Source of the DNA: a virus
Virus record (IMG/VR): IMGVR_UViG_3300045988_180880
Coordinates: 192,001 to 256,000 of that record
Strand: one strand, 5' to 3'
Length of the DNA stretch: 64,000 nt
Below the pieces are notes generated by a model. It ran no database searches and was not told the DNA's origin. It saw nothing but the letters and a program-made list of their open reading frames with translations. Shown here one piece after another: positions 23,901-53,934 of this stretch. The position numbers and the translations under genes were made by a program. Each line of letters opens with the position of its first letter. The first letter of the stretch is position 1.

Positions 23901-26604
23901 AATCAATGCTGTTCAGTCTAATCTTGATAAGACCAATATTTCATTAGAGAATCATATTGCAGATAAGAAGAATCCTCATGAAGTAACGAAGGAACAAGTA
24001 GGTCTAGGTAATGTAGATAATACATCTGACTTAGATAAACCTGTTTCTCATTATCAACAGGATGCTCTTGATGAACTTGAAAGAAGACTTCAAGGTTCTA
24101 TTGATGGTTCTGGTTCTGATCTTAGTGCTCATATTTCAGATTTTAATAATCCGCATAAAGTAACTAAGGATCAGGTTGGACTTGGTAATGTAGATAATAC
24201 AGCTGACAAGGATAAACCTATTTCTGATGCTACACAGAAAGCTTTGGATAGTATTAAGACAGAAACTAATACTATTATCGAAACTCATATAGCAGATAAG
24301 AATAATCCTCATGAAGTAACTAAGGAACAGATTGGATTAGGTGAAGTAACAAATGATGCTCAAGTAAAACGTTCAGAGATGGGCGTAGCTGGGGGAGTTG
24401 CTACACTTGACCAAGAAGGCAAAGTTCCTAGTTCTCAATTACCTAGCTTTGTAGACGATGTTATTGAAGTAGATTCTTACGATAACTTGCCTACTACAGG
24501 TGAAGCTGGAAAGATTTACGTAACCAAAGACACTAACCTAACCTATAGATGGTCTGGTTCTCGATATATTGAAATTTCTGCTTCCTTAGCCCTCGGAGAA
24601 ACTAGCTCAACCGCATATCCAGGTGACAAGGGAAAAGAAACAACTGATAAGGTTAATACTCACGTAGCTGATCTTAATAATCCTCACCAAGTAACTAAAG
24701 AACAGGTTGGACTTGGAAATGTAGATAATACATCCGACCTTGATAAGCCTGTTTCTAATGCTACTCAAGAATTAGTAGACAACACTAAGAAAGAACTTGA
24801 GGATCTGATTACTTCTAATGAGGGAGGTCTAGATAATCATATTAAAGATTTCAACAATCCTCATAAGGTAACTAAAGATCAAGTAGGTCTAGGTAACGTT
24901 GATAATACTTCAGATAAAGATAAACCTTTGTCTGATGCAGCTAAAGAAGCTATCAACGAGGTTAAGACTCTAATTACTTCTTCTGGAACTGACTTAAGCA
25001 ATCATATTAAAGATTATACAAATCCTCATAGAGTAACTGCAGAACAAGTAGGTCTCGGAAATGTAAATAATACTTCCGACCTTGACAAACCTATTTCTAA
25101 TGCTACTCAGAAGGAACTTGATAAACTTGACGCTAAGATTGATAAGATTAATACAGATCAGGGAACAGATCTTAGTGCTCACTTGAGAGATTTCAGTAAT
25201 CCTCATAAAGTAACTAAAGAACAAATTGGACTCGGAAATGTAGATAATACTGCAGATCTCGATAAACCAATATCTACTGCTACACAAAAAGCAATTGATG
25301 ATGCCAAAGCAGCTAATAATACTGCTTTAGATAATCATGCTAATCGTACAGATAATCCTCATAAGGTAACTAAGGATCAAGTAGGTTTAGGTAACGTTGA
25401 TAATACAGCCGATATTAATAAACCTGTATCTGTAGCACAGCAGAATGCTCTTGATACTTTATCTAATAGTTTAAATACAGCTATTAATAATCACGTAGGT
25501 AATACTAATAATCCTCATCAAGTAACTAAAGAACAAGTAGGTCTCGGAAAAGTAGATAATACATCTGACTTAGAAAAGCCTATTTCAGTAGCAACTCAAA
25601 ACGCTATTTCTGAAGTTGTTTCTAATCTGGATAAACATATTGCAGATAAGAACAATCCTCATGAAGTAACAAAAGAGCAAATTGGACTTGGTAGAGTTGA
25701 TAATACATCAGACCTCGAGAAACCTATTTCAACAGCTACTCAGGTTGCTCTTGATAAGAAGGCTGAACTTGGACCTGATGGAAAAATACCTGAAAGTCAA
25801 TTACCTGAAAGAACAATGCATAGTTTGTTCTATAAGGGTACTTGGGATGCTGAAAGGAATTTACCAACACTAGCTAATGGAGATAAGGCACAAGATGGTG
25901 ATTACTATTTAGTTAATAATGATGGTGAGTCCTTTGGATATAAATTCATGGTAAATGATATTATATTCAATGCCAGTGGAATTTGGTATAGAATGATGGG
26001 CTCTAATAAGAGAGATAATCCTACTGAATTTAAGATTACTAAATTCACAGCAGATAGAACTTTATTAGAGAGAGGTGAATCAACAGAAATTACTCTTGAA
26101 TGGGAATATCAATTGACCCCAAGTGGACAAATTAATTTCCAATTCATAGATACTCATGATATTCCTGTTGAGGAACGTACTTATAAGATTACTGCCACTG
26201 GAGGACAAACATTCACATTGAGAGGTTCGTATCTAAGTGAAGTTGCAACAGCTACTTTAACGATTGATACAGCTGATAAGGTTTATGTAGGTGCATCAAG
26301 TAATTCTGCTCCTACTGACTCTGACTTTATAGCAATGAATTCTTTCTTCTCCTTCGGTGATAATGAATTCCCATTCACTCCTATTGATTGTTCAGGAGGT
26401 AAGTATATTTACGTAGCAATTCCAACAGAAGAGTATAGTAAGTATAGAATCTATTGTAATAATTATCCTGTTGATGATGTAACAGTATACTCTAGACGTA
26501 TAACTAACATCTTTACTGGATATACTGATTATACAATTACTAAACTTGCTAATCTCTATCATGGAATACTAAATATTGAAGTTAAATTAATTGATAAAAG
26601 ATAA
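17953..26604 (+). CDS. giant tail fibre protein (2883 aa) built from repeats
   Basis: At least 22 copies by eye of NPH(K/Q/E)VT(K/A)(E/D)Q(V/I)GLGNVDNT(A/S)D..KP(V/I)S. Also a coiled-coil tandem duplication and triplicated ~80-aa modules. Confidence 0.85.
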   Translation: MALNFADRLVSNNPSAYGIVRAIEVSGHKTVSSLSALYKIPDCILSDTGDNSGNDSLGQLWYVIDAREVYQLVNWEKRNEAGGWKPYLSGVITDEALEEILKTKQDKLIAGEGISISEDNVISCTIDTSLFRMVDELPSLEEAETNKIYLLRKENNIGELQSYTEYIVTIKVDEEGKEIKEWEKIGEYDLSIELAPYLKIEDAEKTYVKKENIVDSFEGGDPKEQVLSAEKGKELKGLIDSLEERKVDSVTATPGKGIIVEGTHNDPTIGVLRDPESEGFFTIEETGLKLSGVQDAIDEAVGELTDRVELESDVVYNINEIFPGEGKGENGDQWHIQYAAAKLDAFLPAEKKVPGIKVKFINLDGNWRTFTFNGGYFLDGRNWSYDITSNDFTELATENLPTATPESNGVMSKEDKAKLDGISETINKDVDDKIAEVKETIDNYTVNGYKISTNPSLDRNDIGLGNVTNDAQIKRSEMGVPKGVATLGEDGKVPESQLPDSVLGNVKYQGVWDAVNNVPKLELNDFDSNGHYYIAINKGSQFGYDFDPGDWVINSNGRWVKIDNVDSVKSVNGQIGIVELGIEDIPNLKETLDSKATNDDFNRHLTDYKNPHKVTKDQVGLGNVDNTADKDKPVSDATQALIDQTRTVLENKISELQTNTEADLEVFRSEFENKLAELAAKEEADIVAVNNSLKEAKTELQNNIDNLASKTENDLTVAKKELDNKISELSTKTESDLSTLRADLESSISVTKTELEKSISELASKTENDLNTAKSELEKAISDLTAKEEADIVAVNNALSEAKKELENSISSLASKTENDLSLATKDLNNKISELATKTESDLSTLRADLESSISVTKTDLESKITELATKTDAKFQATDSKIEATKTELQTNIDNLSHRHDDDMKDIRREIEEATAGSNEALNTHIQDKSNPHQVTKEQVGLGNVTDDAQVKRSEMGMPEGVATLDATGKVPSSQLPSFVDDVIEVDSFDLLPETGETGKIYVTKDTNLTYRWSGSQYVEISESLALGETSSTAYPGDKGKATTDKVNAHTSDYNNPHKVDKAQVGLGNVDNTADLDKPVSNATQELVDNTKKELEEKINNSGNDLQDNIDKIDERVTNIEDSIAQPGGLATLDDAGKVPLEQLPSLVDDVIEVDSFEHLPEAGEVGKIYVTKDTNLLYRWTGVKYVEVSESLHLGETADTAYAGDKGKETTDKVNSHISDFNNPHKVTAEQVGLGNVDNTSDINKPVSTAQQEALDAVKTELEEKINNSGSDLQGNIDKIDERVTNIENSVGAPDGIATLDSEGKLEVSQIPNEALNVIEGKYMTETQFTDSEGVEFIPRHNTIYIDSIGGSNKLYRWDGFKYVEVSDSDNVTEAIDNHIKDFNNPHKVTAEQIGLGNVDNTADIDKPISTAVQEALDTVNTKVTEHTENKENPHGVTAEQIGLGNVDNTADYDKPVSKATQDEIDRIDGRIDTIDNSIGVPSGIATLDGNGKLTDSQIPDKTINVLVGKLMSETEFKDEEGNTYEPRTGVIYIDTVSGTEKIYRWNKYEYVEISNTELLEGALNSHVQDKNNPHQVTKEQIGLSEVTNDAQVKRSEMGTPEGVATLNENGKIPVEQLPGQVDEVFGIDRFVSTKTDIPSSRLVIGSTYYVEDEKKIYTAISETELDEGATPDKGVIYSNRETNIIYRWDGAELVEIGNPIHLGEVAGTAYPGDKGKATTDKVNAHVADFENPHQVTKEQIGLGNVDNTSDADKPISSAVQEALDAVNKEVSEHKADKNNPHEVTKAQVGLGNVDNTADLDKPVSNATQELVDNTKKELDTKIDNHTSDFNNPHKVTKEQVGLGNVDNTADINKPVSVAQQALVDSTKAELKKDIGDIEKDVTNHIADKNNPHEVNKLQVGLGNVDNTSDINKPVSIAQQAALDKLKSDLESIIGSTGTDLSAHLKDFDNPHKVTKDQVGLGKVDNTADLEKPVSVATQEAINAVQSNLDKTNISLENHIADKKNPHEVTKEQVGLGNVDNTSDLDKPVSHYQQDALDELERRLQGSIDGSGSDLSAHISDFNNPHKVTKDQVGLGNVDNTADKDKPISDATQKALDSIKTETNTIIETHIADKNNPHEVTKEQIGLGEVTNDAQVKRSEMGVAGGVATLDQEGKVPSSQLPSFVDDVIEVDSYDNLPTTGEAGKIYVTKDTNLTYRWSGSRYIEISASLALGETSSTAYPGDKGKETTDKVNTHVADLNNPHQVTKEQVGLGNVDNTSDLDKPVSNATQELVDNTKKELEDLITSNEGGLDNHIKDFNNPHKVTKDQVGLGNVDNTSDKDKPLSDAAKEAINEVKTLITSSGTDLSNHIKDYTNPHRVTAEQVGLGNVNNTSDLDKPISNATQKELDKLDAKIDKINTDQGTDLSAHLRDFSNPHKVTKEQIGLGNVDNTADLDKPISTATQKAIDDAKAANNTALDNHANRTDNPHKVTKDQVGLGNVDNTADINKPVSVAQQNALDTLSNSLNTAINNHVGNTNNPHQVTKEQVGLGKVDNTSDLEKPISVATQNAISEVVSNLDKHIADKNNPHEVTKEQIGLGRVDNTSDLEKPISTATQVALDKKAELGPDGKIPESQLPERTMHSLFYKGTWDAERNLPTLANGDKAQDGDYYLVNNDGESFGYKFMVNDIIFNASGIWYRMMGSNKRDNPTEFKITKFTADRTLLERGESTEITLEWEYQLTPSGQINFQFIDTHDIPVEERTYKITATGGQTFTLRGSYLSEVATATLTIDTADKVYVGASSNSAPTDSDFIAMNSFFSFGDNEFPFTPIDCSGGKYIYVAIPTEEYSKYRIYCNNYPVDDVTVYSRRITNIFTGYTDYTITKLANLYHGILNIEVKLIDKR

Positions 26605-34935: not shown

Positions 34936-34946
34936 CATATATAAGG
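34936..34946 (-). promoter_or_regulatory. candidate promoter CCTTATATATG for 34587..34910
   Basis: Perfect motif family core on the minus strand, 25 nt before the ATG at 34910. Abuts inverted repeat A. Confidence 0.4.
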
Positions 34947-34969
34947 AAATAAACGTTCCTTTAAATCAG
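34945..34969 (+). repeat. inverted repeat A (GGAAATAAACGTTCCTTTAAATCAG)
   Basis: Its perfect 25-bp reverse complement is at 35614-35638. The core TAAACGTTCCTTTAA is shared with 39628-39648 and 40315-40335. Confidence 0.9.
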
Positions 34970-35272
34970 GATGGTAGTCACAGAACTGTACAAATATCTT
35001 TAACTCCAGTATCTGCTTCAGATTGGATATTATCCGGAAATGTTAATGGAATCTTATTCACTATAAATTCTCCCGAAATATCTACCTCTGTAGATTTATC
35101 AAACACTATACCAAAGGAAATTAATGTACGTGTAATTGCAACCTATTCTTACAGAAGTAATTCTGGTGGGATAGGTAAATGGATGGTAGGTTCTGCTGAG
35201 TCAAATAGTGTATCATTTTCTCAAGGGGAAACAGGAAGTAAAACGATTTCAGTTATTGGAAGACCTTATTAA
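34946..35272 (+). other. start-less coding cassette 1L (EINVPLNQ + ~100 aa beta-rich domain)
   Basis: Open frame from the IR to TAA at 35270-35272. The track ORF 34823..35272 gains its Met only by running antisense through 34587..34910. Confidence 0.55.
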
Positions 35273-35289
35273 ATTAATTTCCTTCTATT

Positions 35290-35637
35290 CTATAATACTT
35301 TTTCAGTTCTAATATTAATTGTTGTTTCTTTATCTTTAAATATTGTAAAAGTACTATTAATATTTGTAATAATATATTTATTAGGACTTTCTACTGATCC
35401 TCCATCTATTATTCTATAAGTTCCAACTCTTAATGTATGGGTACTAGAGTAACTAGAAGAACCCTCTTCATTAGTGATTGGTGTAGTAATTTCAGATTGT
35501 ATGCCATCATCTTCATTTTTTATAATAATAAATAGATGAATGTATTCTTCTATATCTATATTAAACCATTTCCAGTCTATATTTAAAGTTCCTAAATTTA
35601 AAATCTTACCACTCTGATTTAAAGGAACGTTTATTTC
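35290..35637 (-). other. start-less coding cassette 1R (EINVPLNQ + ~107 aa)
   Basis: Minus-strand frame is open from the IR to TAG at 35290-35292 (115 codons). There is an in-frame TGA two codons upstream of the IR, no ATG, and the ORF is absent from the ORF track. Confidence 0.55.
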
Positions 35638-35638
35638 C
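35614..35638 (-). repeat. inverted repeat B
   Basis: Perfect reverse complement of 34945-34969. Confidence 0.9.
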
Positions 35639-35645
35639 GATCAAT

Positions 35646-35660
35646 TCCTTATTAATGTAT
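35646..35660 (+). promoter_or_regulatory. candidate promoter TCCTTATTAATGTAT
   Basis: Motif family member, 25 nt upstream of the ATG at 35685. Confidence 0.4.
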
Positions 35661-35684
35661 ATTAAAATTAAATAAATTAATCAT

Positions 35685-36413
35685 ATGAAGACAGGAATTG
35701 AAACATTAATTTCAGAGGTTGGAAAAAGAATTACTAACAAAACCCAAGTAGAAGGAGGAATTATTTCTGGTTTAGGAATAAATAAAACTAATGGAAAAGA
35801 ATACGTTATTATAAGCGTTTGTGGATCATCGAACATGACGAAAGATCAACTTAATGATCTTTGCGATATTAAAATTATTACTGAAAAACTTATTACAGAG
35901 ACATTCGATTCTAATGGAATTCCAATGTTTTCTTATTGTACAATAGACGAATTCTTTAATTATTGGAATATCGTTAATGATGAAGAAATTAAAAGTTCGA
36001 TAAATTTAACTTTTAAAGAAGCAAAAGAATTATTTTCCTCAACAATATCTTGGGATATAAAAGAGAAGATCTTAAAAATTTATTCAAGAAGACAACTTGA
36101 AGGTCTTCCAGAAAAAATAGAATATCCAAAAGTACCACAAGATTATCCAGCTGAAAAATTTAGAGATAGTGCTAGAGCTTTTAAGGAACTAATTTGGTTA
36201 GTTAAAGAATATACCAAAGCATCAGCTCTTCAAGAACCTAACTGGAATGATTACTCACAAAATAAATTTGCTATTGTGAGATGTGGTGAAGCAGTAATGA
36301 TTTCGAAAGAAAAAACTTTCTTTCCAATAGCCTTTCTCTCTAAAGAAGTTGCTCAAGTATTCTTAGAAGATCATAAAGAGTTATTAGAAGAATATTATAT
36401 GATTGGAAAATGA
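35685..36413 (+). CDS. hypothetical protein
   Basis: ORF-track ORF with an upstream motif. Confidence 0.6.
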   Translation: MKTGIETLISEVGKRITNKTQVEGGIISGLGINKTNGKEYVIISVCGSSNMTKDQLNDLCDIKIITEKLITETFDSNGIPMFSYCTIDEFFNYWNIVNDEEIKSSINLTFKEAKELFSSTISWDIKEKILKIYSRRQLEGLPEKIEYPKVPQDYPAEKFRDSARAFKELIWLVKEYTKASALQEPNWNDYSQNKFAIVRCGEAVMISKEKTFFPIAFLSKEVAQVFLEDHKELLEEYYMIGK

Positions 36414-36625
36414 AAAAATTATTGATTATCCTAATTTTAATATTAGTTTCCAGTTGTGAAGTAGATCTAGAAGAGTATTCTGGATGGATTATTAAAGAAA
36501 AACGTCGAGAACCTTTAGGACTTAATTTTATTATTAGTGATCCAAACAATAATAAAAATTGGAAAATTTTAATAGTTCAAAATTATACATATAAAAAATA
36601 TAATATTGGAGATACAATAAAATGA
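36410..36625 (+). CDS. small lipoprotein
   Basis: MKKLLIILILILVSSC lipobox; ATGA overlap with the upstream gene. Confidence 0.55.
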   Translation: MKKLLIILILILVSSCEVDLEEYSGWIIKEKRREPLGLNFIISDPNNNKNWKILIVQNYTYKKYNIGDTIK

Positions 36626-37467
36626 AAGAATTAAAAACAGCTTCCCTCTCAGAAATTCCAGAGAGATTAGAAAAATCATTAACTCCGGAAAATGGGTATT
36701 CACGAAAAACAAAGAATATCCTAGTAAGATATGCTAGATGGTCGTTAACTTATAATAAGATAATGATGAAGTCTGATACTAAGTATATAAATTTTGAATA
36801 TAGTGTTGTTGGAGTTTATCCGTATATTTATCTTATCCCAATTATTAAAGTATATAAGTTAGATCGAATAATTGGAAATAACCTAGTTTATTCAGTTATC
36901 GATACTATAAAAGATCCGAAAGTTTGTTTTGATATCCCGGCTCTTATAGAATTAGGAGAAAAGCATGGAGTAGAGTTTAGACAATATCGTGGAAAAGGTC
37001 CAAATAAAAAACCCATGGCGAGAGTAATGCTAAGAAAATTCACGGATATAGAGAGCTCGTATTTTTACCTTGAAGATTACATTTCAACAGATGATATAAT
37101 AATTGAAACTTTCGATGGACTTAAGAGCTCAGAACAACGTGATATATTCTTAGAACTAGGAACGCCATGTTTTTGTATGACGTTAGATTCTGAAACAAAA
37201 GAATGGATTTTTTCTCTTAATCCTACTATTGGATCCTTTCCTGAAGATATAAATTTTCAAGGATATCCAGATGATTGGTCAAACGAGGGAATAATTCAGA
37301 GATATCAAGAATTTTCCGAAGATCTTCAGAAACCACGTCAAAAAGTAACTCCAGAATCGGTAGCTGAAGAAAAACGATTGGAGATGGAGAGAAGAAAAGA
37401 ACAGAAACGTACTAAAAATAGGAATAATGATAGATCTAAGAAAATATGCAATATTTCCGGAAAGTAA
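36622..37467 (+). CDS. hypothetical protein (basic C-terminus)
   Basis: ORF-track ORF; ATGA overlap with the upstream gene. Confidence 0.6.
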   Translation: MKELKTASLSEIPERLEKSLTPENGYSRKTKNILVRYARWSLTYNKIMMKSDTKYINFEYSVVGVYPYIYLIPIIKVYKLDRIIGNNLVYSVIDTIKDPKVCFDIPALIELGEKHGVEFRQYRGKGPNKKPMARVMLRKFTDIESSYFYLEDYISTDDIIIETFDGLKSSEQRDIFLELGTPCFCMTLDSETKEWIFSLNPTIGSFPEDINFQGYPDDWSNEGIIQRYQEFSEDLQKPRQKVTPESVAEEKRLEMERRKEQKRTKNRNNDRSKKICNISGK

Positions 37468-37609
37468 TAATTTTTTGGATAGTAGTACTCCAGGGTTAGA
37501 AGAATTAGAAAGATTTAATAAGATCATGGAAGAAACGCAGAAAAATTTGAATATAAAATCAGGATCAAGAAATGATATAATTTATGAAAAAGAAGCTGAC
37601 AAAAAATAA
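37427..37609 (+). CDS. hypothetical small protein (start uncertain)
   Basis: ORF-track ORF that overlaps both neighbours. Confidence 0.35.
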   Translation: MIDLRKYAIFPESNNFLDSSTPGLEELERFNKIMEETQKNLNIKSGSRNDIIYEKEADKK

Positions 37610-38123
37610 ATGGATAACTTCAAAAGGTGAGGAATTATCTTTAGAAGAAATGAACAGTTCTCATATATTAAATGCAATCAGAAAAATAAAATCTTCAACA
37701 GGATGGAGAGAAGATTGGCTTCCTATCTTAGAAGCAGAACTAACTAGAAGAAGTATGATAGCAAGAACAGATGATTATGAGAAAAAGATCATAACTGATG
37801 AGGAAAAAATGTATTTCTTATGTACTTCATGTGAATACCAAATGTTATCTGTTGAAGGTGGTAGTTTATCTGATATACTGAATATTACTATTAATGATCA
37901 AGTAAAAAGTTATATAAGAGATAATATTTTTTGTATACCTCTTGAACAATCTAAGGAAAATTTTATTTCGGAGATGGATAAATTAATAAGAAAAACTAGA
38001 AGTAATTCTAAAGAAGATGCTGAGAAATTTATGAGTTATTATGAAAAATATCTTCTAATTAATGTCTTTTCAAAAGAATGGAGTAATTTTATGAACTTAA
38101 TGTTAGGTCGTCATGGAAAGTAG
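37584..38123 (+). CDS. hypothetical protein
   Basis: ORF-track ORF; operon packing. Confidence 0.55.
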   Translation: MKKKLTKNKWITSKGEELSLEEMNSSHILNAIRKIKSSTGWREDWLPILEAELTRRSMIARTDDYEKKIITDEEKMYFLCTSCEYQMLSVEGGSLSDILNITINDQVKSYIRDNIFCIPLEQSKENFISEMDKLIRKTRSNSKEDAEKFMSYYEKYLLINVFSKEWSNFMNLMLGRHGK

Positions 38124-38349
38124 AATCAAAGAATCAATTATTAAACACTTAGAGTATCAAAAAAGTATTGCTAAAGATCCCGAAGGACCGTTTATATGTT
38201 GTCCTATGCCTGGTAAAAATTCATGGACCATTTCTGAAATAATAGAGGAAGTAAGAAAAGAGACAGAATTTGGAGAGGAATTTGCAGATGATGTTATAGG
38301 ATTAGCTATTGATATTTTATGTCGAAAGAATCAATCAATGAATGGATAA
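38113..38349 (+). CDS. hypothetical protein
   Basis: ORF-track ORF; operon packing. Confidence 0.5.
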   Translation: MESRIKESIIKHLEYQKSIAKDPEGPFICCPMPGKNSWTISEIIEEVRKETEFGEEFADDVIGLAIDILCRKNQSMNG

Positions 38350-38534
38350 ACTCTCAAGAACTAACAACCGAAGATCTTGATTTTATGTGGGATTTTTGTA
38401 TAGTTTTCGGTCATCCTGTAATATCTAAACTTGGAATGGCTTCTTGGAAAGATTTACGTCCAGACTTAATTAAACAAATTCCGAACGAATATGAGAAGAT
38501 GGTAGAAAAAGTAATATATAATAATAAGGAATAA
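38319..38534 (+). CDS. hypothetical protein
   Basis: ORF-track ORF; operon packing. Confidence 0.5.
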   Translation: MSKESINEWINSQELTTEDLDFMWDFCIVFGHPVISKLGMASWKDLRPDLIKQIPNEYEKMVEKVIYNNKE

Positions 38535-38992
38535 TGAAATTATTGAATTTAGAGGAATATTTAACTCCAGAAAGTATAAAAGTACATGATATTAATCAAT
38601 GGGATTCATTTTTATTTAACTTACTTGAAGAAGAAAATATATATCCACCTAAACTTACTGGACAATGGATAACAGATAAAAATAGATTTTATGAAAAGTT
38701 TGTATGTTTGAAAGAAGTAACTGAGAATACTTATTATCCTATGTATTGTAGACAATATAATCCAATTGAAATTACTATATATCATGAAAAGAATGGATTA
38801 TATGATTTTAAATGTATGTTAATAAGTATTGACGATACAGCTTTTGGGTTTGGATGGGAAAATTTAGAAAGACTTAGCATAGATAAATATGTTCTAGAAA
38901 TTATATCTTGGATTGATAAAGTAGATAAATTAGATCATGAAGAATTAATTAAATATGGACTTTCTTTAGGTGCAGAAGATTTAAGTTGGTAA
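38534..38992 (+). CDS. hypothetical protein
   Basis: ORF-track ORF; its ATG overlaps the upstream stop. Confidence 0.55.
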   Translation: MKLLNLEEYLTPESIKVHDINQWDSFLFNLLEEENIYPPKLTGQWITDKNRFYEKFVCLKEVTENTYYPMYCRQYNPIEITIYHEKNGLYDFKCMLISIDDTAFGFGWENLERLSIDKYVLEIISWIDKVDKLDHEELIKYGLSLGAEDLSW

Positions 38993-39004
38993 TTAAATAT
39001 AAAC

Positions 39005-39118
39005 ATGAATGATTTTAAAATAAAAGATATAGTAAAAGGATTAATGATTTGTACTTTTATTTCAGGGTTTTTAATAGGTATCTTATCAGTTTTAATTTTA
39101 ATTTATTCAACAATATGA
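39005..39118 (+). CDS. small membrane protein (37 aa, below track cutoff)
   Basis: ATG at 39005. Sequence MNDFKIKDIVKGLMICTFISGFLIGILSVLILIYSTI. ATGA overlap with the next gene. Confidence 0.4.
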   Translation: MNDFKIKDIVKGLMICTFISGFLIGILSVLILIYSTI

Positions 39119-39576
39119 AGAAAGAATTATATGATGAGTATGTAAAAGCTTGGGATATTTGGAAGAAAAGAACTGATGAATATTTTCAAAAAAGAGTTGA
39201 AATAATTAAAGATAAAACTCTCTCCGAAGAATCTCAATCAAAACTTTTAGACACATTAGCAGAGAATTTTGATAGAAAAGGTTTTACAGAAGAATATTTT
39301 GGACCTTGGACGGAAATAAGAGATGTTACTGATCTATTAAATCCTGACTTCATTTTACCAGGAATAGGCAAGAATTATTCAGAACTTCAAATAGCGAAAG
39401 ATGATGTTCCAGGAAATTGGGGTAAGATTGCTAGAGATTGTTATGATCCTAAAAGATATGGAAAAATAATTGGACTTGGATATGATTCCGGAGATTATTA
39501 TCTTATTATAGAAAACCCTGATACTGGAGAAGAATCAACAATCTTAATGAATACTAAGTATACTATTGATTCATAA
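39115..39576 (+). CDS. hypothetical protein (track ORF 39049..39576 trimmed to first ATG)
   Basis: In-frame ATG at 39115 (MKKELYDEY...). The upstream part of the track ORF starts at TTG and overlaps the small TM ORF. Confidence 0.55.
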   Translation: MKKELYDEYVKAWDIWKKRTDEYFQKRVEIIKDKTLSEESQSKLLDTLAENFDRKGFTEEYFGPWTEIRDVTDLLNPDFILPGIGKNYSELQIAKDDVPGNWGKIARDCYDPKRYGKIIGLGYDSGDYYLIIENPDTGEESTILMNTKYTIDS

Positions 39577-39584
39577 AAGAATAT

Positions 39585-39620
39585 AAGACTAGGATTTTAT
39601 TTTCCTAGTCTTATTTTTCT
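39585..39620 (+). terminator. hairpin terminator
   Basis: 10-bp perfect stem AAGACTAGGA (39585-39594) / TCCTAGTCTT (39603-39612), then ATTTTTCT. Confidence 0.6.
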
Positions 39621-39627
39621 CTTACCA

Positions 39628-39648
39628 TTAAACGTTCCTTTAAGTCAA
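39628..39648 (+). repeat. inverted repeat C (TTAAACGTTCCTTTAAGTCAA)
   Basis: Its reverse complement at 40315-40335 has one mismatch. An imperfect extension outward includes the flanking hairpins. Confidence 0.85.
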
Positions 39649-39963
39649 TATGCAAAAGCTGTTTATGTTAATCTCATTGTTACTTGGAGTGGAGATCCAA
39701 GTAGACCTTATGGAGCACACTTTACTTTAACTAGTAATGGTTTTGTACACGGTTTTCAAGAAATATCTAGTTCCGGTGTTCTTCCAGGAGATACAGAAAC
39801 TTTCTCAATACAAATAATAAATGATTATAATGTTTTTTCGTGGAGTTCTTCTGGTGTTTGGTATGCATATCACGATGATCTAAAACAAATACAATCTACA
39901 ATTAGTCCTAGTTCTGGAAATTTTAGCGCTAATAATGACATATACATAACTTTTAATACATAA
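39628..39963 (+). other. start-less coding cassette 2L (LNVPLSQ + ~104 aa)
   Basis: Frame is open from 39577 to TAA at 39961-39963, with no in-frame ATG. It is in frame with 39115..39576 across that gene's TAA. Confidence 0.5.
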
Positions 39964-39984
39964 AATTAAAGATAAAAATAATTT

Positions 39985-40335
39985 TTAATTGTTCTCTGGA
40001 AGTATTGGAAGACGAATATCTATATAAAAAACTTGTTCAGACTCTGAAAGAGTTATATTACTAGGAGTACATACTCCCAATTGACTATATAGACTTCCAG
40101 CCGAGTATAAAAATTCAAGATAATTTGATCCAAAAAATTCTGAATCTATTTTTTGAATTTTAGTATCCGTATATGCACTTCCCATTCCAGATCCTTTAAA
40201 TTCAAAAGAAGGTATTCCAACTTTTCTTAAAGTTAACATCCAATTAATTTGTCTTCCATTACTAGAAGAAGGTATATTTATTTTAAATGTCCAGTATTTA
40301 ATTCTTTCACCCTCTTGATTTAAAGGAACGTTTAA
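39985..40335 (-). other. start-less coding cassette 2R (LNVPLNQ + ~109 aa)
   Basis: The track ORF 39985..40239 extends upstream, without a stop, to the IR. An in-frame TAA lies 10 codons upstream of the IR. Confidence 0.5.
40315..40335 (-). repeat. inverted repeat D
   Basis: Reverse complement TTAAACGTTCCTTTAAATCAA; 20/21 match to repeat C. Confidence 0.85.
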
Positions 40336-40339
40336 AGTA

Positions 40340-40377
40340 AAAGAAAAATAAGAGATAGGATTTTATTTCCTATCTCT
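40340..40377 (-). terminator. hairpin terminator of 40370..40876
   Basis: 10-bp perfect stem AGAGATAGGA (40351-40360) / TCCTATCTCT (40368-40377). Loop and arms resemble the 39585 hairpin. Confidence 0.55.
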
Positions 40378-40876
40378 TTTTCACACTCTCCGAAATAACC
40401 TCTTCTAATTCACCTTCTGTAATATAATCCATTAAAGTTTCTTCGAATTCTACATTTATCCAAGCTTGCAACATAGCTGTATTTTCAAAATCTTCATAAC
40501 TCAGATTTCTTAACTTAACTATCTGATCTACGGCATGTCTTGTTTCGTGATAAAATGTAGTTTTGATATTCTTAACCAAACTTTTATAATCCTTTTTGGC
40601 AATAAAAGGTCTATTTCTTCTAGAGTCAATGTTTACTATTACTACTACTTGATCGAATCCTGTTGTTTTATTAATAATTCTATAAGTAGATGTTCCGGAT
40701 GTTGAACTTATTGTTTCTATAAGTTCTTCTGCTCTTGAATTTTTCTTTACCGGAATTTCCATTTTATGATTCTTTACAAACTTAGTAGTAAACCACCTCG
40801 TCATTTCTTTCTGTGTTCCAATTCCAAAATTAATTTCTACTCTATAAGAATCATGTTTTAATTTACTTATTTTCAT
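40370..40876 (-). CDS. hypothetical protein with HExxH motif
   Basis: FYHETRHAVDQ; otherwise no recognisable family. Confidence 0.55.
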   Translation of the reverse strand: MKISKLKHDSYRVEINFGIGTQKEMTRWFTTKFVKNHKMEIPVKKNSRAEELIETISSTSGTSTYRIINKTTGFDQVVVIVNIDSRRNRPFIAKKDYKSLVKNIKTTFYHETRHAVDQIVKLRNLSYEDFENTAMLQAWINVEFEETLMDYITEGELEEVISESVKKR

Positions 40877-41368: not shown

Positions 41369-43270
41369 TTAACTTACTGTAGTATGTTTTGTTTTTATTA
41401 CTTTGGTTTTCACTATTTCATTCAAAAGTTTCGGCATTTCCTCTAAGTTATATCCGATATCTATATAAGTATCAAACATATCTTCAACACCGTAAACAGC
41501 ATCTATACTAATCTGAATTATTCCGAATCCAAGTTTTTCTGCTTCTTTTACTTTTGCGGCAGTATCTTTTATTGCTGGAATTCCTCCATATCCATTTGCA
41601 CAAGGGCTACCATCAGATATCACAAACATAATACAATTCTCTTTTGTGAACTTTCTAACTCTCTTTGCTACTTCTAGAATTGCATCTCCATCTCGATTTT
41701 GGGATTTTGCACAACTCTTAGATAATGAAAACTTAGGATTATAATGACTTCCTTCTCGATACACACTCAGATTTATATATCCGATCGAACCAATATCTGC
41801 AGTATGTCCATAAATATATAGATCAACTCCCAAACTTTTTCCGAAGGTTTCATTTAGAAGTATTGCAGCCTGTCTCGCTAGGATTTCCTTTTTTCCACCC
41901 ATAGATCCAGACTCATCAATAAGAACACATATAGTTGATTTATTGGTTCTAACATGTCCCTGTCTTAGGTAAACTTGTGGAACTCCTTGATATGCTTCTG
42001 CAAGTTTTGTCGTATCTAGAATTCCAGACCTACAACCTTGGATATTAAAATCATAGTTCTTATCTGTTCCTGTCAATATCTTTTTTAATCTAGGAACATA
42101 TTTTTGAACTGCTCTCACATCACATAAATAACTATTTCTATCCCCTTTTGGTTTTTCAAAGAATACCTTATCAGAATCACCACGTTCTACTGTTCCCTCT
42201 AAGATTTTCATTGTTAGGCTGTCCTTTAATGATAATAACCTAGATACTTTAGACTTATCTATCTTTCTTCCAGAATCTAAGTCAACTCCATACATTATAC
42301 TAGTTATAGATTCAGTATCATTAATTAAGAATAATATTTTTTTTAATTCCGCCGGATCTATATCAGATAATTTCTTCTCCTTAATTATCTTAAATATACT
42401 TTCAGAAACACTACAAATATCTTTAAGATTTTCTGGATATGGAGTTATCTTTTCTTGAACTTCTTTGTATACCTCAGAATACTCCTCAAGAATCTCCTCT
42501 TCTATTAATCCAGGAAATCTAAGTATCCCTATTAATGTTTTAAAGAAAAGAATCAACTTCCTCTCCCTCATCATATTAAGTCTTCCCTCTAGAGTCTTAG
42601 AATTATAACTTTTCGCACAATCAATAAAATCTTGAAATCCTGGTCGTTCTGTTAGTAATAAATCCTCAACTCTATTATCCTCAAGAAGATTTATGAAAAT
42701 TTTAATAATCTCTCCTTCTTCAGAAGTATATTTTCCACTTATAAAACTAAGAAAATTCAAATAAACTCTTAAGTAGGTATATCTTAAGTGTGCAGCCTCA
42801 TGAAGACCAAATCCACAGAAGGCATTTATTTTTGTTTCATTATCTTCGGTGGAGTCAAATATCTTAGAAGGGACTGCTATTCTTCTTTCGGAATTATCTC
42901 TTTTCTCTTCTGAAAAATAATCTGAATACGAACTACTTTCATCACTACTCTCATTTAAATTTACTTTAATCGGGAAAGGAAAATCCATTATAGTTATCAT
43001 ATCTTTTACAGAACTATAAGCCTTTTCAATTAACTTAGATAATTGTGCATCCTCTTCCTTTCCAACAGATGAATATGAATAATAACTTTCTCCATACCAA
43101 GAGCTTCTATTTATAGTTCTACTTAGCTCTCCAGAATTTCCGACAGATGATTTATAGGATTTTCTAAATATACTCCTACCCCATCTACCATCATCTTCGT
43201 CATCATAGTAATCATCATAATCCTTTCTTTTCCACCAAGGATAATATGAGGTTGAAAAATGTTTACTCAT
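41369..43270 (-). CDS. HExxH + vWA domain protein (CobT-like)
   Basis: GLHEAAHLRY in the N-terminal half; MIDAS-like VLIDESGSMGG and a vWA-like C-terminus. Adjacent to an AAA+ ATPase gene. Confidence 0.7.
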   Translation of the reverse strand: MSKHFSTSYYPWWKRKDYDDYYDDEDDGRWGRSIFRKSYKSSVGNSGELSRTINRSSWYGESYYSYSSVGKEEDAQLSKLIEKAYSSVKDMITIMDFPFPIKVNLNESSDESSSYSDYFSEEKRDNSERRIAVPSKIFDSTEDNETKINAFCGFGLHEAAHLRYTYLRVYLNFLSFISGKYTSEEGEIIKIFINLLEDNRVEDLLLTERPGFQDFIDCAKSYNSKTLEGRLNMMRERKLILFFKTLIGILRFPGLIEEEILEEYSEVYKEVQEKITPYPENLKDICSVSESIFKIIKEKKLSDIDPAELKKILFLINDTESITSIMYGVDLDSGRKIDKSKVSRLLSLKDSLTMKILEGTVERGDSDKVFFEKPKGDRNSYLCDVRAVQKYVPRLKKILTGTDKNYDFNIQGCRSGILDTTKLAEAYQGVPQVYLRQGHVRTNKSTICVLIDESGSMGGKKEILARQAAILLNETFGKSLGVDLYIYGHTADIGSIGYINLSVYREGSHYNPKFSLSKSCAKSQNRDGDAILEVAKRVRKFTKENCIMFVISDGSPCANGYGGIPAIKDTAAKVKEAEKLGFGIIQISIDAVYGVEDMFDTYIDIGYNLEEMPKLLNEIVKTKVIKTKHTTVS

Positions 43271-43276
43271 AGTCTA

Positions 43277-44431
43277 TTAATAAGATAATATTGTTTTATA
43301 TACTGTACTTCTTTCTCCTTCCAAATTAGTTCCTTCATAGATTGGAAGATATACCATTTCCATAGCACTTTTCACACTCCAACCATCTGATACTAACTCT
43401 GAGATCATTAGTGTTTCTCGAATTGATATAGAAGTTGAGATCTCCTGTTTCTTTGAGAGTGATCTAATATTATTCGCTATCTTCACAATTGATCTAGCTA
43501 CTTCTTCATCAATTCCCGTTCTATTAACCAAAACATTTACTTCTTCTGTATCTGGTATAATATTAAGTTCAAGAGGAAAAAATCGATTAAGAAGTGCTCG
43601 GTCTATCATATTAGTTCCAGTATATTCAGAACCTATATTAGCTGTTGCAATAAATGTTACCTCTGGATGAATTTTAATACTTCTAACTCCTTTCCCACAA
43701 GCTATTTCAACATTCAATTCCCGTCTATCATCTAAACAAGGAAACAATACATTATTAGCCCCAAGAGAAGAACGATTTAACTCATCTAAGAGAATTACAC
43801 ACGGTTCTTGAATTACTTTAGTGAACTTAGCATAATCAAATATACTTTTTCCATCTTCTAAGCGATGAACTCCAAGTAAATTTGAAATAGGATCAATCAT
43901 AGAACCCATATCAAACACATGAAGAGGTATACCCATTCTAGAACAAACTTCTTTTACACAACTTGTCTTTCCAGAACCTGTAGGCCCTATAATCATCGTA
44001 TTAACATGTTTTTTTATATTTCTCACTAAGATTCTCCAATTATCAGGGGTCATATAAAATCCATCCTTTGTAGAACTTGGAGAAATTAGTGATGCATCTT
44101 TAAGAATTGTTTCGAGAATCGTATCTTTCTTTAAGGGATCTACGAAATCAATTCCAGTCAGAGTTTTATATTCTTTTTTAGCTTCTTCATCTTTATATGT
44201 TAATCTTTGAAATCCCTTTTGTGTATAAAACTTTCCACCTGAAGAACTAAGATTAAGAAAAGTTGAGATAAATATAGTACCTTCTGAATAAACATCTCTT
44301 ATCTTCTTAGGGCATTGTACATAAAGACTTGTAGATACATTAGAACCATCCTTCAATTTTTGTCCAGGGAGTGCTTTTACTTTCAAATTTCCTTTAACTA
44401 ATACTGTCTCTAAAAAATAATACTTACTCAT
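43277..44431 (-). CDS. AAA+ ATPase (CobS/MoxR, AAA_5-like)
   Basis: Walker A GPTGSGKTS, Walker B ILLDELNRS, FIATANIG, LLNRF. Confidence 0.8.
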   Translation of the reverse strand: MSKYYFLETVLVKGNLKVKALPGQKLKDGSNVSTSLYVQCPKKIRDVYSEGTIFISTFLNLSSSGGKFYTQKGFQRLTYKDEEAKKEYKTLTGIDFVDPLKKDTILETILKDASLISPSSTKDGFYMTPDNWRILVRNIKKHVNTMIIGPTGSGKTSCVKEVCSRMGIPLHVFDMGSMIDPISNLLGVHRLEDGKSIFDYAKFTKVIQEPCVILLDELNRSSLGANNVLFPCLDDRRELNVEIACGKGVRSIKIHPEVTFIATANIGSEYTGTNMIDRALLNRFFPLELNIIPDTEEVNVLVNRTGIDEEVARSIVKIANNIRSLSKKQEISTSISIRETLMISELVSDGWSVKSAMEMVYLPIYEGTNLEGERSTVYKTILSY

Positions 44432-45099: not shown

Positions 45100-47124
45100 A
45101 TGAATAATAAAATGTATAGGGAAAAAGTAATAGTTCCTAGAGGTATTAGATTTATTTCAGAATGGAGTGAATTTAATTTTAGCAAATTTCCAGGGAAGTG
45201 TATAATAAATAAGCAATTACCTGGTTGTGGATTTACTGAATACTGTATTAGAAGTGGTGAAAATATTATTCTATGTAGTCCAAGAAAAATGTTACTTAAG
45301 AATAAATGGAGTCAACATAAGAATGAAGTTTACTTAGTAGTAAATGAAATGGATAAAGATTCTAATATTGATAAAGATTTATCCAAAATCGATAAGAGCG
45401 TAGTAATAGATAATTTAGTTAAGGAAGAAATATCTACTAATTCTGAAATCTATAAAAGATTATATCATGAAATAGAAGAATATTGTATGAATAGACCTTA
45501 TGGATTAGGTAAGAAGATATTAGTTACTTACGATTCTTATAGGATAGTGAAGGATATCTTAGAAAAGTTAGGATGGTTTAATAGATTTATTACAGTTATA
45601 GATGAATTTCAGAGTATCTTACATGATGCTAGATTCAAAAGTGATACTGAATTAAAATTTATGGAATACCTTAAACAGTCCCCCACTGCATATTTTGTAT
45701 CTGCTACTCCAATGATGGATGAGTACCTAGAAATGTTAGATGAATTTAAAGATTTACCTTATTATGAATTAGATTGGGGAAGTGAAGACACAACAAGAAT
45801 TATTAAGCCTGATTTAGATGTATATTTAATGAGAACGGTTGGTGAAAAGGCGTCTGAAATTATTCAAAAATATCTTAATAATGATTTTGAAAGTGTAGTA
45901 GTTCTTAGAAATGGTATTCCAACTAGGATAATATCAGATGAGGCTGTATTTTATGTAAACAGTGTGAATCATATTACATCTATTATAAAAAAGAATAACC
46001 TTACCCCTGAACAATGTAATATATTATGTTCAGATACAGAAGATAATAAAAAGAAAATTCAGAGAAGACTTGGAAAATCTTTTACAATAGGAGAAGTACC
46101 GTTGAAAGGAGTTAAACCTAAGATGTTTACATTCTGTACTAGGACTGTATATCTTGGGGCTGATTTTTATAGTTTATGTGCAAGGAGTTTCATATTCTCA
46201 GATTCTAATATAGACAGTTTAGCTGTTGATATTAGTGAAGATCTTCCCCAAATACTAGGTCGTCAAAGACTTTTCGAAAATCCTTGGAGTAATAGTGCAA
46301 TATTCTATTATAGATCTACTGCTAACTATAGAGAGATGAAGGAAGAAGATTTTAAAAATATAATAGAATCTAAGAAAAAATCTACTGAAAATCTATTATT
46401 AGCATACAATACTACCTTAGACACTGTTAAGTATGATTTAGCAAAGAATTATCAAAAAGTTGCTAAATCTTATAACTACAAAGATGATTATGTAGCAGTA
46501 AATAAAATTCAAACACGGGATGGAAATATAATACTTAAACCTGTTCTTAACAATTTAGTATTAGTAAATGAGATTAGGGCATTTAAAATACAACAAATAG
46601 ATTATAAAGATAGATTTAGTGTATTTTCCACTATTCATAATACTTTATCTCCAGATGATATAGTTAATCAGGAGGTATCAGAATTTCTTAGAGTATATAC
46701 TAAATTAAGTACTATACATGATAAACTAAAAATGCTGTGTGAGTATGGTTTATCTAGTGATGCAATTGATATAGTTCTTGGACAGATAGCTGATTCTGAT
46801 GAAATTAAGTCTTATTATACTACATTGGGCTCTAGTAAGCTTAAATCACTATCTTATAATAGTGCTAAAATAAAAAATCATCTAGGGGTAGTAACATTTA
46901 GTCAAGAACTTCTAGAATCTAGTATTTATTCGGAATTTAAAGTAGGGGATAAAATAACACTATCTGATATAAAATCTAGACTTGAGGTGTTATATAAGTC
47001 CATTAATTACGACAAAGTAGCCAAAGCAAAGGATTTAGAAAACTATTTTGAAGTTAAGAATTCTAGTATTTATGAAAATGGAAAGAAAGTAAAATGTTAT
47101 ATTATTATTAAAAAGAAAGAATAA
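45100..47124 (+). CDS. SF2 helicase-like protein, paralogue B (atypical Walker A)
   Basis: Same motif set as 821..2899 (LPGCGFTEY, VIDEFQ, VSATP, QILGRQR), with long stretches of identity. Confidence 0.7.
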   Translation: MNNKMYREKVIVPRGIRFISEWSEFNFSKFPGKCIINKQLPGCGFTEYCIRSGENIILCSPRKMLLKNKWSQHKNEVYLVVNEMDKDSNIDKDLSKIDKSVVIDNLVKEEISTNSEIYKRLYHEIEEYCMNRPYGLGKKILVTYDSYRIVKDILEKLGWFNRFITVIDEFQSILHDARFKSDTELKFMEYLKQSPTAYFVSATPMMDEYLEMLDEFKDLPYYELDWGSEDTTRIIKPDLDVYLMRTVGEKASEIIQKYLNNDFESVVVLRNGIPTRIISDEAVFYVNSVNHITSIIKKNNLTPEQCNILCSDTEDNKKKIQRRLGKSFTIGEVPLKGVKPKMFTFCTRTVYLGADFYSLCARSFIFSDSNIDSLAVDISEDLPQILGRQRLFENPWSNSAIFYYRSTANYREMKEEDFKNIIESKKKSTENLLLAYNTTLDTVKYDLAKNYQKVAKSYNYKDDYVAVNKIQTRDGNIILKPVLNNLVLVNEIRAFKIQQIDYKDRFSVFSTIHNTLSPDDIVNQEVSEFLRVYTKLSTIHDKLKMLCEYGLSSDAIDIVLGQIADSDEIKSYYTTLGSSKLKSLSYNSAKIKNHLGVVTFSQELLESSIYSEFKVGDKITLSDIKSRLEVLYKSINYDKVAKAKDLENYFEVKNSSIYENGKKVKCYIIIKKKE

Positions 47125-52438: not shown

Positions 52439-53136
52439 TTCTAGATAAAGACAAAAGTAAATTAATTTCGAGAGATATCTTATTATCAACTTATAAAGAA
52501 CTTTTAGATAACTCAGGTCTTAAGAAAAAATTAGCAAGATTAGAAAAACTAATTAAAGAATTAGTAGTTGAACTTTATAGAAAGTATGTATTTTCCGACG
52601 AGTTATTACAGTTATTTGATAAATCTAAGAAAATTGCAAAAACTATGAGATCTATTGATGTAAATTTTCAAGTTCTAGGATTATGTGACTCTCCTCAAGG
52701 TTACTATCCTAATAAGATATTAACATTAGATTCTGGAACACCTATTGGATTTGTTGTAAGTATAAACAGGTGGGTAAATATAGAAGATGATTATTTAGAG
52801 AGTTTGCCTATGTGTGGTGATGATACTTATAAGTTAATGAATGTTATAGATAAGTTTACACCAGAAGAAGTAGATGTTCTTAAAAATGCTTATATAGATC
52901 TCTTTAAAGCAACTTATGCAATAAGAAACTTTAAAGGTGGGCAAGATAAATACCTTCCAGAAAATATAAAAACTTATGGACAACTACATGATTATGATCT
53001 AGAAATTTTTGAAATAGCTTATAATAAATTCATACAACAAAGGGATGAATTAAAAGTAAAAAATAATGAATCACACTTAGATAGAAATGATATTCCTGGA
53101 AGTTTACAACGACTTAAAAGAATACTTGAACTCTAA
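52435..53136 (+). CDS. hypothetical protein
   Basis: ATGA overlap with the upstream gene. Confidence 0.55.
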   Translation: MILDKDKSKLISRDILLSTYKELLDNSGLKKKLARLEKLIKELVVELYRKYVFSDELLQLFDKSKKIAKTMRSIDVNFQVLGLCDSPQGYYPNKILTLDSGTPIGFVVSINRWVNIEDDYLESLPMCGDDTYKLMNVIDKFTPEEVDVLKNAYIDLFKATYAIRNFKGGQDKYLPENIKTYGQLHDYDLEIFEIAYNKFIQQRDELKVKNNESHLDRNDIPGSLQRLKRILEL

Positions 53137-53574: not shown

Positions 53575-53934
53575 ATGAATGAAAACTATGTATTAGTAAG
53601 ATGGCCAGAATCACAAGAATTTATGGAATGTGATTGGTTTAGAGATGAAGCAATTTTAGCTTTGGGACATGAAGATCAGACTGGAAGTAGTGCATATTTT
53701 ATTCCAGAATCTAGAATCTTAACTAAAGAGTATGTTCAACAAAGAGTAGCAGAACTTTGTAGAGATTATGAAGTTACACCAGAAGAAGAGGATTATTCTA
53801 GTAAACAATGGTGTGATGAGGCTTTCCCATATGAAGGTGGAATGTCTTTAAAAGAATTAATTGTAGAAATTGCTCTATTAGTAAGAAAAAGATCAACTCT
53901 TCAAGACGATAAAAAATACGACGGAGAGATGTAA
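53575..53934 (+). CDS. hypothetical protein
   Basis: ORF-track ORF, followed by the hairpin GAGAGGA..TCCTCTC and a T-run. Confidence 0.55.
   Translation: MNENYVLVRWPESQEFMECDWFRDEAILALGHEDQTGSSAYFIPESRILTKEYVQQRVAELCRDYEVTPEEEDYSSKQWCDEAFPYEGGMSLKELIVEIALLVRKRSTLQDDKKYDGEM

Follow-up and report, generated by a model that had tools for sequence, protein, structure and literature searches.

The stretch of DNA analysed here, positions 192,001 to 256,000 of IMG/VR virus record IMGVR_UViG_3300045988_180880 (the window; 64,000 nucleotides, numbered from its first letter), contains a segment, module 2, in which two reading frames without start codons converge between inverted copies of a short repeat. 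A second segment of the same build, module 1, lies about 4 kb to the left. The question raised by this locus is what frames that carry no start of their own are kept for. We propose that module 2 very probably represents two parked cassettes of a large multiple-inversion shufflon in a human-gut phage of ~400 kb, the host of which is probably a Bacteroidales bacterium. The hallmarks of shufflon-type systems were found: alternating inverted sites, start-less and unrelated cassettes, and isomers with their breakpoints at the sites.

In the proposed mechanism, an inversion between any site in + orientation and any site in - orientation would turn round everything between them and would bring new cassettes behind two outward-reading fibre genes of one block. 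The codons of the site would join the constant fibre body to a variable C-terminal domain of ~100-230 amino acids (aa). Each interval from a + site to a - site would hold two convergent start-less cassettes, and each interval from a - site to a + site a block with both of its ends facing cassettes. The left and right cassettes of module 2, M2L and M2R, would be parked with the terminator of gene 39049-39576 on one side and that of gene 40370-40876 on the other.

Module 2 and its inverted repeat

The repeat of module 2, TTAAACGTTCCTTTAAGTCAA at 39628-39648, recurs as its reverse complement at 40315-40335, where a single position is mismatched (an A in place of a G), and its core on the two strands (39628-39648, +; 40315-40335, -) can be written as TTAAACGTTCCTTTAA(G/A)TCAA. 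A repeat finder extended the arms to 34 nt (39615-39648 and 40315-40348) with a complementarity of 79%. The 19-mer TAAACGTTCCTTTAARTCA occurs four times with 0 mismatches, at 34950 (+), 35615 (-), 39629 (+) and 40316 (-); the degenerate form TAAACGTTCCTTTAA(A/G)TCA retrieves the same four copies in the orientation +,-,+,-. There are no further copies elsewhere in the 64-kb window, and 100 dinucleotide-preserving shuffles of the window yielded none. The core is thus not a motif scattered through the DNA but is present only where a frame begins, each of the four sites opening a start-less frame of 107-116 codons.

M2L, on the + strand, begins LNVPLSQ and runs over 111 codons to a TAA at 39961-39963. 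M2R, on the - strand, begins LNVPLNQ and runs over 116 codons to a stop at 39985-39987, the gap between both stops being 21 bp. Over its full length the frame of M2L contains no ATG, GTG or TTG; in M2R these codons are absent from the first 32 codons (41 if counted from the preceding in-frame stop). In-frame stops are situated 17 codons upstream of M2L and 9 codons upstream of M2R. Past the seven-residue leader no significant similarity was found between any two of the four cassettes in the two modules. An earlier note, made from the letters of this DNA, had claimed the repeat with its single mismatch, the convergent start-less frames and the unrelatedness of the cassettes beyond the leader, and all of this was confirmed.

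A hairpin stands outside each cassette. The left one (39583-39614; 12 pairs, free energy (dG) -19.5 kcal/mol, z = -6.9) and the right one (40350-40378; 11 pairs, dG -16.3 kcal/mol, z = -5.0) each have a T-run behind them, and a terminator scan detected both. The earlier note had described them as terminator-like, correctly, and as an outward extension of the inverted repeat. The mirrored hairpins are real but are the ordinary terminators of the converging neighbours 39049-39576 (+) and 40370-40876 (-). Their likeness reflects a family of related block-end terminators (U00, U05, U09, U19, U21, U25-28). As site positions up to 5 and everything upstream of them segregate with the flank (see below), the terminators lie outside the exchanged unit.

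The features of the two modules and of the DNA between and beside them are as follows.

39049-39576, +: last gene of block B1, 175 aa; ends 52 nt before site s3, its TAA lying in the M2L frame
39583-39614, +: intrinsic terminator of gene 39049-39576, 12-bp stem and T-run; predicted to keep transcription off the parked cassette
39629-39647, +: crossover site s3, TAAACGTTCCTTTAAGTCA; encodes (L)NVPLSQ, with the exchange placed within G-T-T-C at 39634-39637
39628-39963, +: cassette M2L, 111 codons and TAA, start-less, predicted all-beta domain
39964-39984, no strand: spacer between the convergent stops, 21 bp
39985-40335, -: cassette M2R, 116 codons and stop; no start until codon 33
40316-40334, -: crossover site s4, TAAACGTTCCTTTAAATCA, exact 19-mer
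40350-40378, -: intrinsic terminator of the 168-aa gene, 11-bp stem and T-run; overlaps the stop codon of that gene
40370-40876, -: 168-aa gene, constant right flank of the shufflon (context U00); the DNA past its site varies between genomes
35634-39628, +: passenger block B1 between s2 and s3, nine small genes; found in either orientation and with different neighbours in relatives
34950-34968, +: crossover site s1, left end of module 1, exact 19-mer
35615-35633, -: crossover site s2, right end of module 1, exact 19-mer
34949-35272, +: cassette M1L, 107 codons and stop
35290-35634, -: cassette M1R, 114 codons and stop, start-less

Module 1 (34945-35638) has the architecture of module 2. It lies between divergent genes, the starts of which flank it, and lacks terminator hairpins like those of module 2, which lies between convergent genes. 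The 4-kb block at 35.6-39.6 kb is wholly on the + strand and the outer flanks are both on the - strand; the block itself therefore looks inverted. For the cassettes of module 1, M1L and M1R, no second copy was found among the other fetched genomes.

The TAA of gene 39049-39576 is in the frame of M2L, and the 17 sense codons between them span the terminator hairpin; this is probably a coincidence (1 in 3). Ribosomal bypass or stop read-through from this gene into M2L was rejected, as the frames coincide but nothing else supports it and the other three cassettes are arranged otherwise. A promoter role of ACATATATAAG ahead of the parked cassettes was also rejected, the motif not being enriched (8 matches versus 3.95 expected).

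Cassettes as the ends of long, putative fibre genes

In locus L053 two divergent open reading frames (ORFs), 12684-15638 (984 aa) and 10877-12247 (456 aa), cross a site and end ~100-120 aa later, with the junctions ...SDSSSLNVRLNQ and ...PSPSNINVPLNQ. The same two-ORF arrangement is present in L055 and L057. Both cassettes of module 2 were found elsewhere as in-frame C-termini of such long ORFs, M2L behind 475 open codons in L057 (7 mismatches in 90) and M2R behind at least 689 open codons in L025 (0 mismatches in 90); they are thus not fixed, conventionally initiated ORFs. M2L joins the short fibre after ...NSWPSPSN, continuing INVPL (L057, and P0005, a cluster with 63 members from the protein database, in which M2L is joined to the C-end of the short fibre), and M2R joins the long fibre after ...FTSDDSS, continuing LNVPL (L025). 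The present long-fibre tip of L053 is 39% identical to M2R.

Consequently, in L053, L055, L057 and L025 the site marks, in frame, the change from a constant 5' body to a variable 3' end. This is not the case inside the window, where tblastn with the fibre bodies of the shufflon matched in the cassette part alone. Since the window holds no fibre gene body, all four of its cassettes are in silent positions. The earlier note had regarded them as silent donor cassettes: they are parked and start-less as it said, but copying from donors does not hold, their movement being a reciprocal site-specific inversion.

Both fibre proteins are rich in serine and threonine and contain repeated Y-x-F-S-V-S-P-T-S-L-x-F units. 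Their Pfam matches, BACON and fn3_6, are both sub-threshold, and PHROGs gave no match for fibres or cassettes. An AlphaFold2 model of one cassette is all-beta with nine strands (predicted local distance difference test, pLDDT, 68); a Foldseek search against the PDB returned nothing at E <= 0.001 and only generic beta-domain matches (pilin, CBM20/41, TssJ-like). From the model, the variable domains are predicted to be small and beta-rich, and they may set the binding specificity.

One block end, U04 (cation-ATPase block; L007 8872, L012, L023 6372, L050), puts AAAGGATATGAAAA right before the site. Any cassette arriving there forms an ORF of ~113 aa starting MKINVPL..., which is called as a gene in many assemblies (P0001, P0003, P0006, P0008). 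This end could be a third, free-standing expression site.

The cassettes were also considered as homologues of the tail-fibre genes of the window or of one another, and this was dropped, no similarity being detected. A 2,883-aa ORF in the window (17953-26604) contains many diverged repeats of 144-177 nt and G-x-A-T-L-D-x-x-G-K-(V/I)-P-x-x-Q-L-P motifs; the K-V-P-x-x-Q part resembles the N-V-P-L-N-Q junction, and the crossover site is absent there.

Position of the exchange within the site

The consensus of the site comprises 19-21 bp, (A/T)TAAACG-TT-C(C>G,T)TTTAA(A/G)TCA, and is read in frame as (I/L)-N-V-P-L-(N/S)-Q. Flank and cassette clusters were defined outside the 19-mer, and the polymorphic positions of the site were tested for which cluster they follow. 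Positions -2 to 5 track the upstream flank (entropy given the upstream cluster 0.03-0.07; 0 of 500 permutations), whereas position 10 and positions from 16 onward track the cassette (0 of 500 permutations; 2 of 500 for position 17). Position 15 was significant for neither flank nor cassette. Positions 6-9 (G-T-T-C) are invariant. With the flank-linked part ending at position 5 and the cassette-linked part starting at position 10, the exchange can be placed within the 4-bp G-T-T-C. If position 10 is G, the site is a perfect dyad, TTAAACG-TT-CGTTTAA, and the exchange interval G6-C9 is centred on its TT, with a resolution of 4 bp, not 2.

Conservation around the site is asymmetric, with none upstream and ~10 nt downstream (CA-R-GAT-GGT-AAA). 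Within the site the Asn codon is AAC in 153 instances and AAT in 1, compared with an AAT share of 85% genome-wide, and 26 instances have CGT (Arg) or CTT (Leu) in place of the Pro codon CCT; the regular expression used to collect the sites fixed GTT and TTA, and these two codons are uninformative. That AAC is kept while Pro varies points to a constraint on the DNA and not on the protein.

Layout of the probable shufflon and its isomers

A full copy of the region is contiguous in IMGVR_UViG_3300045988_180568. It extends from 47,608 to 76,349 (28.7 kb) with the same bounding flanks as in the window and contains 20 sites in strict +/- alternation, that is, ten two-cassette modules and nine blocks. 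Just this alternation is preserved when a system rearranges by inversion alone. The intervals between sites are either cassette pairs of 0.6-1.1 kb or gene blocks of 1.5-4 kb, and the passenger blocks carry unrelated genes including DNA polymerase A, a cation ATPase, TerD and RlaP. Two of the cassettes would be expressed as the ends of the fibre genes; the remaining 18 would be silent because they are start-less and face terminators or divergent gene starts.

Over all loci, 171 site instances fall into ~30 upstream contexts and ~44 cassette types, counts that rest on simple Hamming thresholds and on a regular expression that misses the most degenerate of the sites. Context U00, the 168-aa gene, is followed by 21 different cassettes and the context left of module 1 by 16, and the M2L-type cassette stands behind 10 different contexts.

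Some arrangements depart from the two-cassette module. Blocks of ~57 bp at 52698-52754 and 53831-53885 of the full copy (also L003 9864 and L004 12451) consist of a bidirectional terminator hairpin alone. The sites around them have a degenerate left half (TAATTG, TATATG or TAACTG for TAAACG) and yet several cassette partners. In L008 (8345-8413) an "empty" module was found, with two opposed sites 31 bp apart and both cassettes missing.

A scan of IMG/VR with the exact 19-mer gave 37 loci, nearly all in one phage group and several on contigs of 230-378 kb. An exact 19-mer on an unrelated 150-kb viral contig (L015 5853-5871), without a cassette-like frame behind it, was taken as a chance match. 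The 168-aa gene is 92-100% identical on 12 of the IMG/VR contigs of the group. In the assembly collection it is indexed in 2,476 blocks, with human-gut contigs of 370-402 kb, and a second flanking gene in 2,568 blocks.

The earlier note had suggested that the cassettes might be silent and be swapped or inverted between isolates, and had advised aligning the module flanks across related phages. Such comparisons, all made between assemblies from different samples, bore the suggestion out: blocks are reordered or inverted, cassettes stand behind many flanks, and synteny breaks at the sites. In megablast alignments of the window with its relatives, collinearity ends at the four sites (34976, 35603-15, 39629-47 and 40302-36). 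L038 has block B1 forward and module 2 reversed, and in L008 B1 has the opposite orientation and adjoins the left flank. Past the site beside the 168-aa gene eight assemblies differ, continuing with DNA polymerase A, TerD, cation-ATPase, NADAR or the fibre block; altogether ten distinct neighbourhoods were seen behind this gene.

Among 15 genomes sharing 4.1 kb of constant flank (all 97-100% identical), the adjacent cassette differs in 104 of 105 pairs. The single concordant pair, L055 and L056 from different samples, is identical over 11,545 bp except for 2 mismatches and 1 gap, and diverges directly after the next site. Furthermore, 21 of 29 contig termini in the fetched loci lie within 130 nt of a site, and one 375-kb contig has both its ends at sites. 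As the exact repeat of ~19-21 bp is below the k-mers of assemblers, these breaks suggest structural heterogeneity within the samples.

Likeness to capsule-promoter invertons of Bacteroidales

Inversion of promoters by Mpi in B. fragilis was reportedly described by Coyne et al. in 2003. Shkoporov et al. (PMC8375218) report GTTCGTTTAA as the inverted repeat on both sides of the capsule promoters in B. intestinalis. They also point out that it overlaps ARACGTTCGTN, the repeat of the B. fragilis promoters that are inverted by the serine recombinase Mpi.

We scanned 185,579 species genomes for AAACGWWCGTTT-N165-195-AAACGWWCGTTT, a pattern with G fixed at position 10. At least 120 pairs of AAACGWWCGTTT spaced by 165-195 bp were obtained, nearly all in Parabacteroides, Bacteroides, Mediterranea, Tannerellaceae and Odoribacter. 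Among the pairs listed with a TT or AA centre, the left copy has TT and the right copy AA in 53 of 58, and the phage modules are built likewise. The exact 15-mer TAAACGTTCGTTTAA, the G variant of the phage, forms inverted pairs at 25 loci in Bacteroides, Mediterranea and Tannerellaceae. One of these invertons, in B. salyersiae, lies directly upstream of a gene for an UpxY antiterminator (NF033644, 178 bits), which identifies it as the promoter of a capsule locus. Another inverton, with a 12-mer core, is situated 300 nt from a 202-aa protein the best NCBIfam match of which is NF009949 (Mpi; 216 bits, cutoff 272).

Conversely, ARACGTWCGT / GTTCGTTTAA is exact in 15 of 136 non-redundant phage sites (G variant); most other sites have 1 mismatch (C or T for G), and 14-15 sites with a degenerate left half are changed further. 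Judged by its sequence, the phage site is the repeat of the Mpi-type invertons of Bacteroidales, with the same core and the same layout of TT left and AA right. The two systems differ in what the sites do. In Mpi invertons the segment that is turned over is a promoter of ~170-230 bp with one site at each end, whereas the ~20 phage sites are in frame in coding DNA, and no ON/OFF promoter segment of that size was found between the phage repeats. Also, most phage sites have a C in the right half where the repeats of the Mpi invertons have G.

Points against the shufflon and the question of the enzyme

Several observations weigh against a multiple-inversion shufflon of fibre genes or against parts of it. 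The bounding flanks are 5.4 kb apart in the window (two modules, one block) and 28.7 kb apart in the contiguous relative. From this difference the window would be either the product of a deletion between direct sites, which would remove DNA polymerase and fibre genes, or a chimera, its assembly path having taken a short cut over junctions of different isomers in a heterogeneous region. C occupies position 10 in 114 of 136 phage sites (84%), whereas the host repeats in the literature and in the scan with fixed G all have G. Switching within a population is read entirely from assembly breaks and near-identical genomes. A receptor-binding role of the fibres, as opposed to e.g. capsid decoration, is deduced while Pfam matches stay sub-threshold and PHROGs are blank, and the cassette model is of moderate quality (pLDDT 68) with no specific fold match. 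Finally, a serine or tyrosine recombinase was detected neither in the window nor in the 10 kb past each of its ends, the 28.7-kb shufflon or the other fetched loci (~110 kb of unique sequence out of ~400 kb). A scan of IMG/VR for two invariant Mpi motifs, which would miss divergent enzymes, gave 25 contigs of at most 107 kb and 0 jumbo contigs.

The searches behind the missing recombinase were of several kinds. Pfam and PHROGs on the genes around both modules, a regular expression for catalytic motifs and Pfam on the genes of the passenger blocks detected none, and neither did the Pfam tables for 42-64 kb of the window and the 10 kb beyond both ends. phmmer searches of 730 kb of six-frame translations with the Mpi-like protein, a second serine recombinase, Hin and XerD (the Hin and XerD queries being approximate) found none. 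In particular, phmmer and Pfam on the fetched phage DNA detected no invertase gene beside the shufflon. An IMG/VR scan with an Mpi protein found no phage recombinase, and a protein-database search with Mpi gave bacterial-looking clusters alone among the 120 listed.

Because the site equals the inverton repeat and the exchange was mapped to the centre of the dyad, we infer that catalysis would be by a serine invertase of the Mpi family. We considered two alternatives for the origin of the recombinase. First, the same shufflon could be driven by a recombinase encoded by the phage in its other ~290 kb, either a serine invertase of divergent sequence or a tyrosine recombinase akin to Rci; the likeness to the host repeats would then reflect common descent of the enzyme. 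We give this alternative very nearly an even chance. The classical tail-fibre inversion systems and the R64 shufflon are generally known to carry their own recombinase, about a quarter of the genome was examined, and the asymmetric conservation of the site recalls the one-armed sfx sites of Rci. On the other hand, the usual place of such genes, beside the shufflon, is devoid of one, and none of the 25 contigs from the Mpi-motif scan is a jumbo contig. As for a tyrosine recombinase, the interval of at most 4 bp at the dyad centre fits the 2-bp stagger of serine enzymes over a tyrosine spacer of 6-8 bp.

Second, the phage may be without an invertase of its own, its ~20 sites mimicking the capsule invertons of the host, so that the Mpi of the host would shuffle the fibre tips at each infection. 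The negative recombinase searches in ~110 kb of the phage DNA would fit this. We advance this possibility tentatively and rate it somewhat short of an even chance. If it is true, one enzyme would drive both the capsule variation that blocks adsorption and the counter-variation of the phage, a conceptually new coupling.

Explanations without programmed switching

The arrangements could instead be fixed in each strain and arise by rare illegitimate or homologous recombination at a linker motif, i.e. by ordinary tail-fibre mosaicism. That every comparison was made between assemblies from different samples is in keeping with this explanation. However, an exchange of ~4 bp within a core of 19 bp is too short for homologous recombination, the orientation of the sites alternates in 20 of 20 cases, and codons are constrained at the level of DNA despite the amino acid change. 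Moreover, genomes with 2 differences in 11.5 kb have different arrangements, 104 of 105 close pairs differ, and the sites are where assemblies break off. In the window itself 23 kb are skipped, for which two isomers in one sample or a deletion are needed. We therefore regard mosaicism as very improbable.

A reading of the four frames as normal small genes, started internally or at non-canonical codons, with the repeat as a shared regulatory or leader element, is scarcely credible: gene callers do find short ORFs (84 aa from an internal ATG in M2R; 113-aa "MKINVPL..." forms), but M2L is without any start codon, the same cassettes end ORFs of ~475 and at least 689 codons elsewhere, and the leader is kept as DNA and not as protein.

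Comparison with known inversion systems

In the G/Gin system of phage Mu, the C/Cin system of P1 and the Min system of p15B, inversion puts alternative start-less 3' parts behind the constant 5' body of a fibre gene. The phage shares with these the crossover site within the coding sequence at the junction of constant and variable parts, probably also a short dyad with an asymmetric central dinucleotide, and with p15B Min the presence of several sites and many isomers. In contrast to the 2-6 sites over 3-4 kb of these systems it has ~20 sites over 29 kb, two outward-directed expression genes in one block, and passenger blocks which include the essential DNA polymerase. It has no fibre-assembly chaperone gene with the cassettes and no adjacent invertase gene, and its site is the Mpi inverton sequence instead of gix, cix or mix.

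The shufflon of R64 and other IncI plasmids resembles the phage system in the clustered multiple inversions, in the choice of one out of many adhesin C-termini (pilV), in that only inversions are productive, and in the asymmetric conservation of the core. It differs in having an adjacent gene for the tyrosine recombinase Rci, a single expression site at the end and no passenger blocks, and in being carried on a plasmid. The phage site is unrelated to sfx in sequence, and an approximate XerD query gave no XerD-like match in the phage DNA. Shufflons are also known for the SusC/SusD genes of B. fragilis, inverted by Tsr0667 (PMC4747536). In these, too, multiple inversions change the coding sequence of a surface protein, and they belong to the same bacterial order, but they use a tyrosine invertase, lie on the bacterial chromosome and have other sites and targets.

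In the literature we found neither a phage shufflon of this type nor, host invertons aside, its site sequence described. Compared with the known fibre and shufflon systems, what differs is the scale, the two expression genes, the essential passengers, the lack of an adjacent invertase or chaperone gene and the host-type site. One genome holds ~20 cassettes, and a small sample yielded more than 40 types; this appears to be the largest fibre-switching inversion system known to us. It could explain how one phage lineage keeps pace with Bacteroidales that phase-vary their capsules, and also why assemblies of the phage nearly always break at one place. The site shared with the host capsule inverton provides a testable link between phase variation of the host and host-range variation of the phage. 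As a simple sequence tag it can serve to find such systems, and it helps in assembly and in the annotation of start-less cassettes, which are now miscalled as small ORFs.

Other features of the window

The window is phage DNA of 31% G+C with a tail-fibre cluster at 16-32 kb, pairs of AAA and vWA genes and a split NrdD. Megablast of 33-45 kb of the window against GenBank phages gave no match; the closest relative at the protein level is Bacteroides phage BS162P1, through an AAA protein of 48% identity. The protein encoded at 9928-10887 has no record in the assembly collection.

Two pairs of AAA-ATPase and vWA/CobT-like genes are present in the window, on opposite strands. Paralogous regions are 821-2899 and 45100-47124 as well as 5497-8861 and 41369-44431, and the genes of a 692-aa and a 674-aa protein have a nucleotide identity of 74-78%. 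NrdD (58158-61743, -) is divided into three ORFs of 310, 127 and 262 aa. An ORF for an HNH_3/NUMOD4 homing endonuclease (59273-59776) is situated between two of the pieces, and some relatives have a second NUMOD4 ORF; the split looks like an interruption by an intron or intein.

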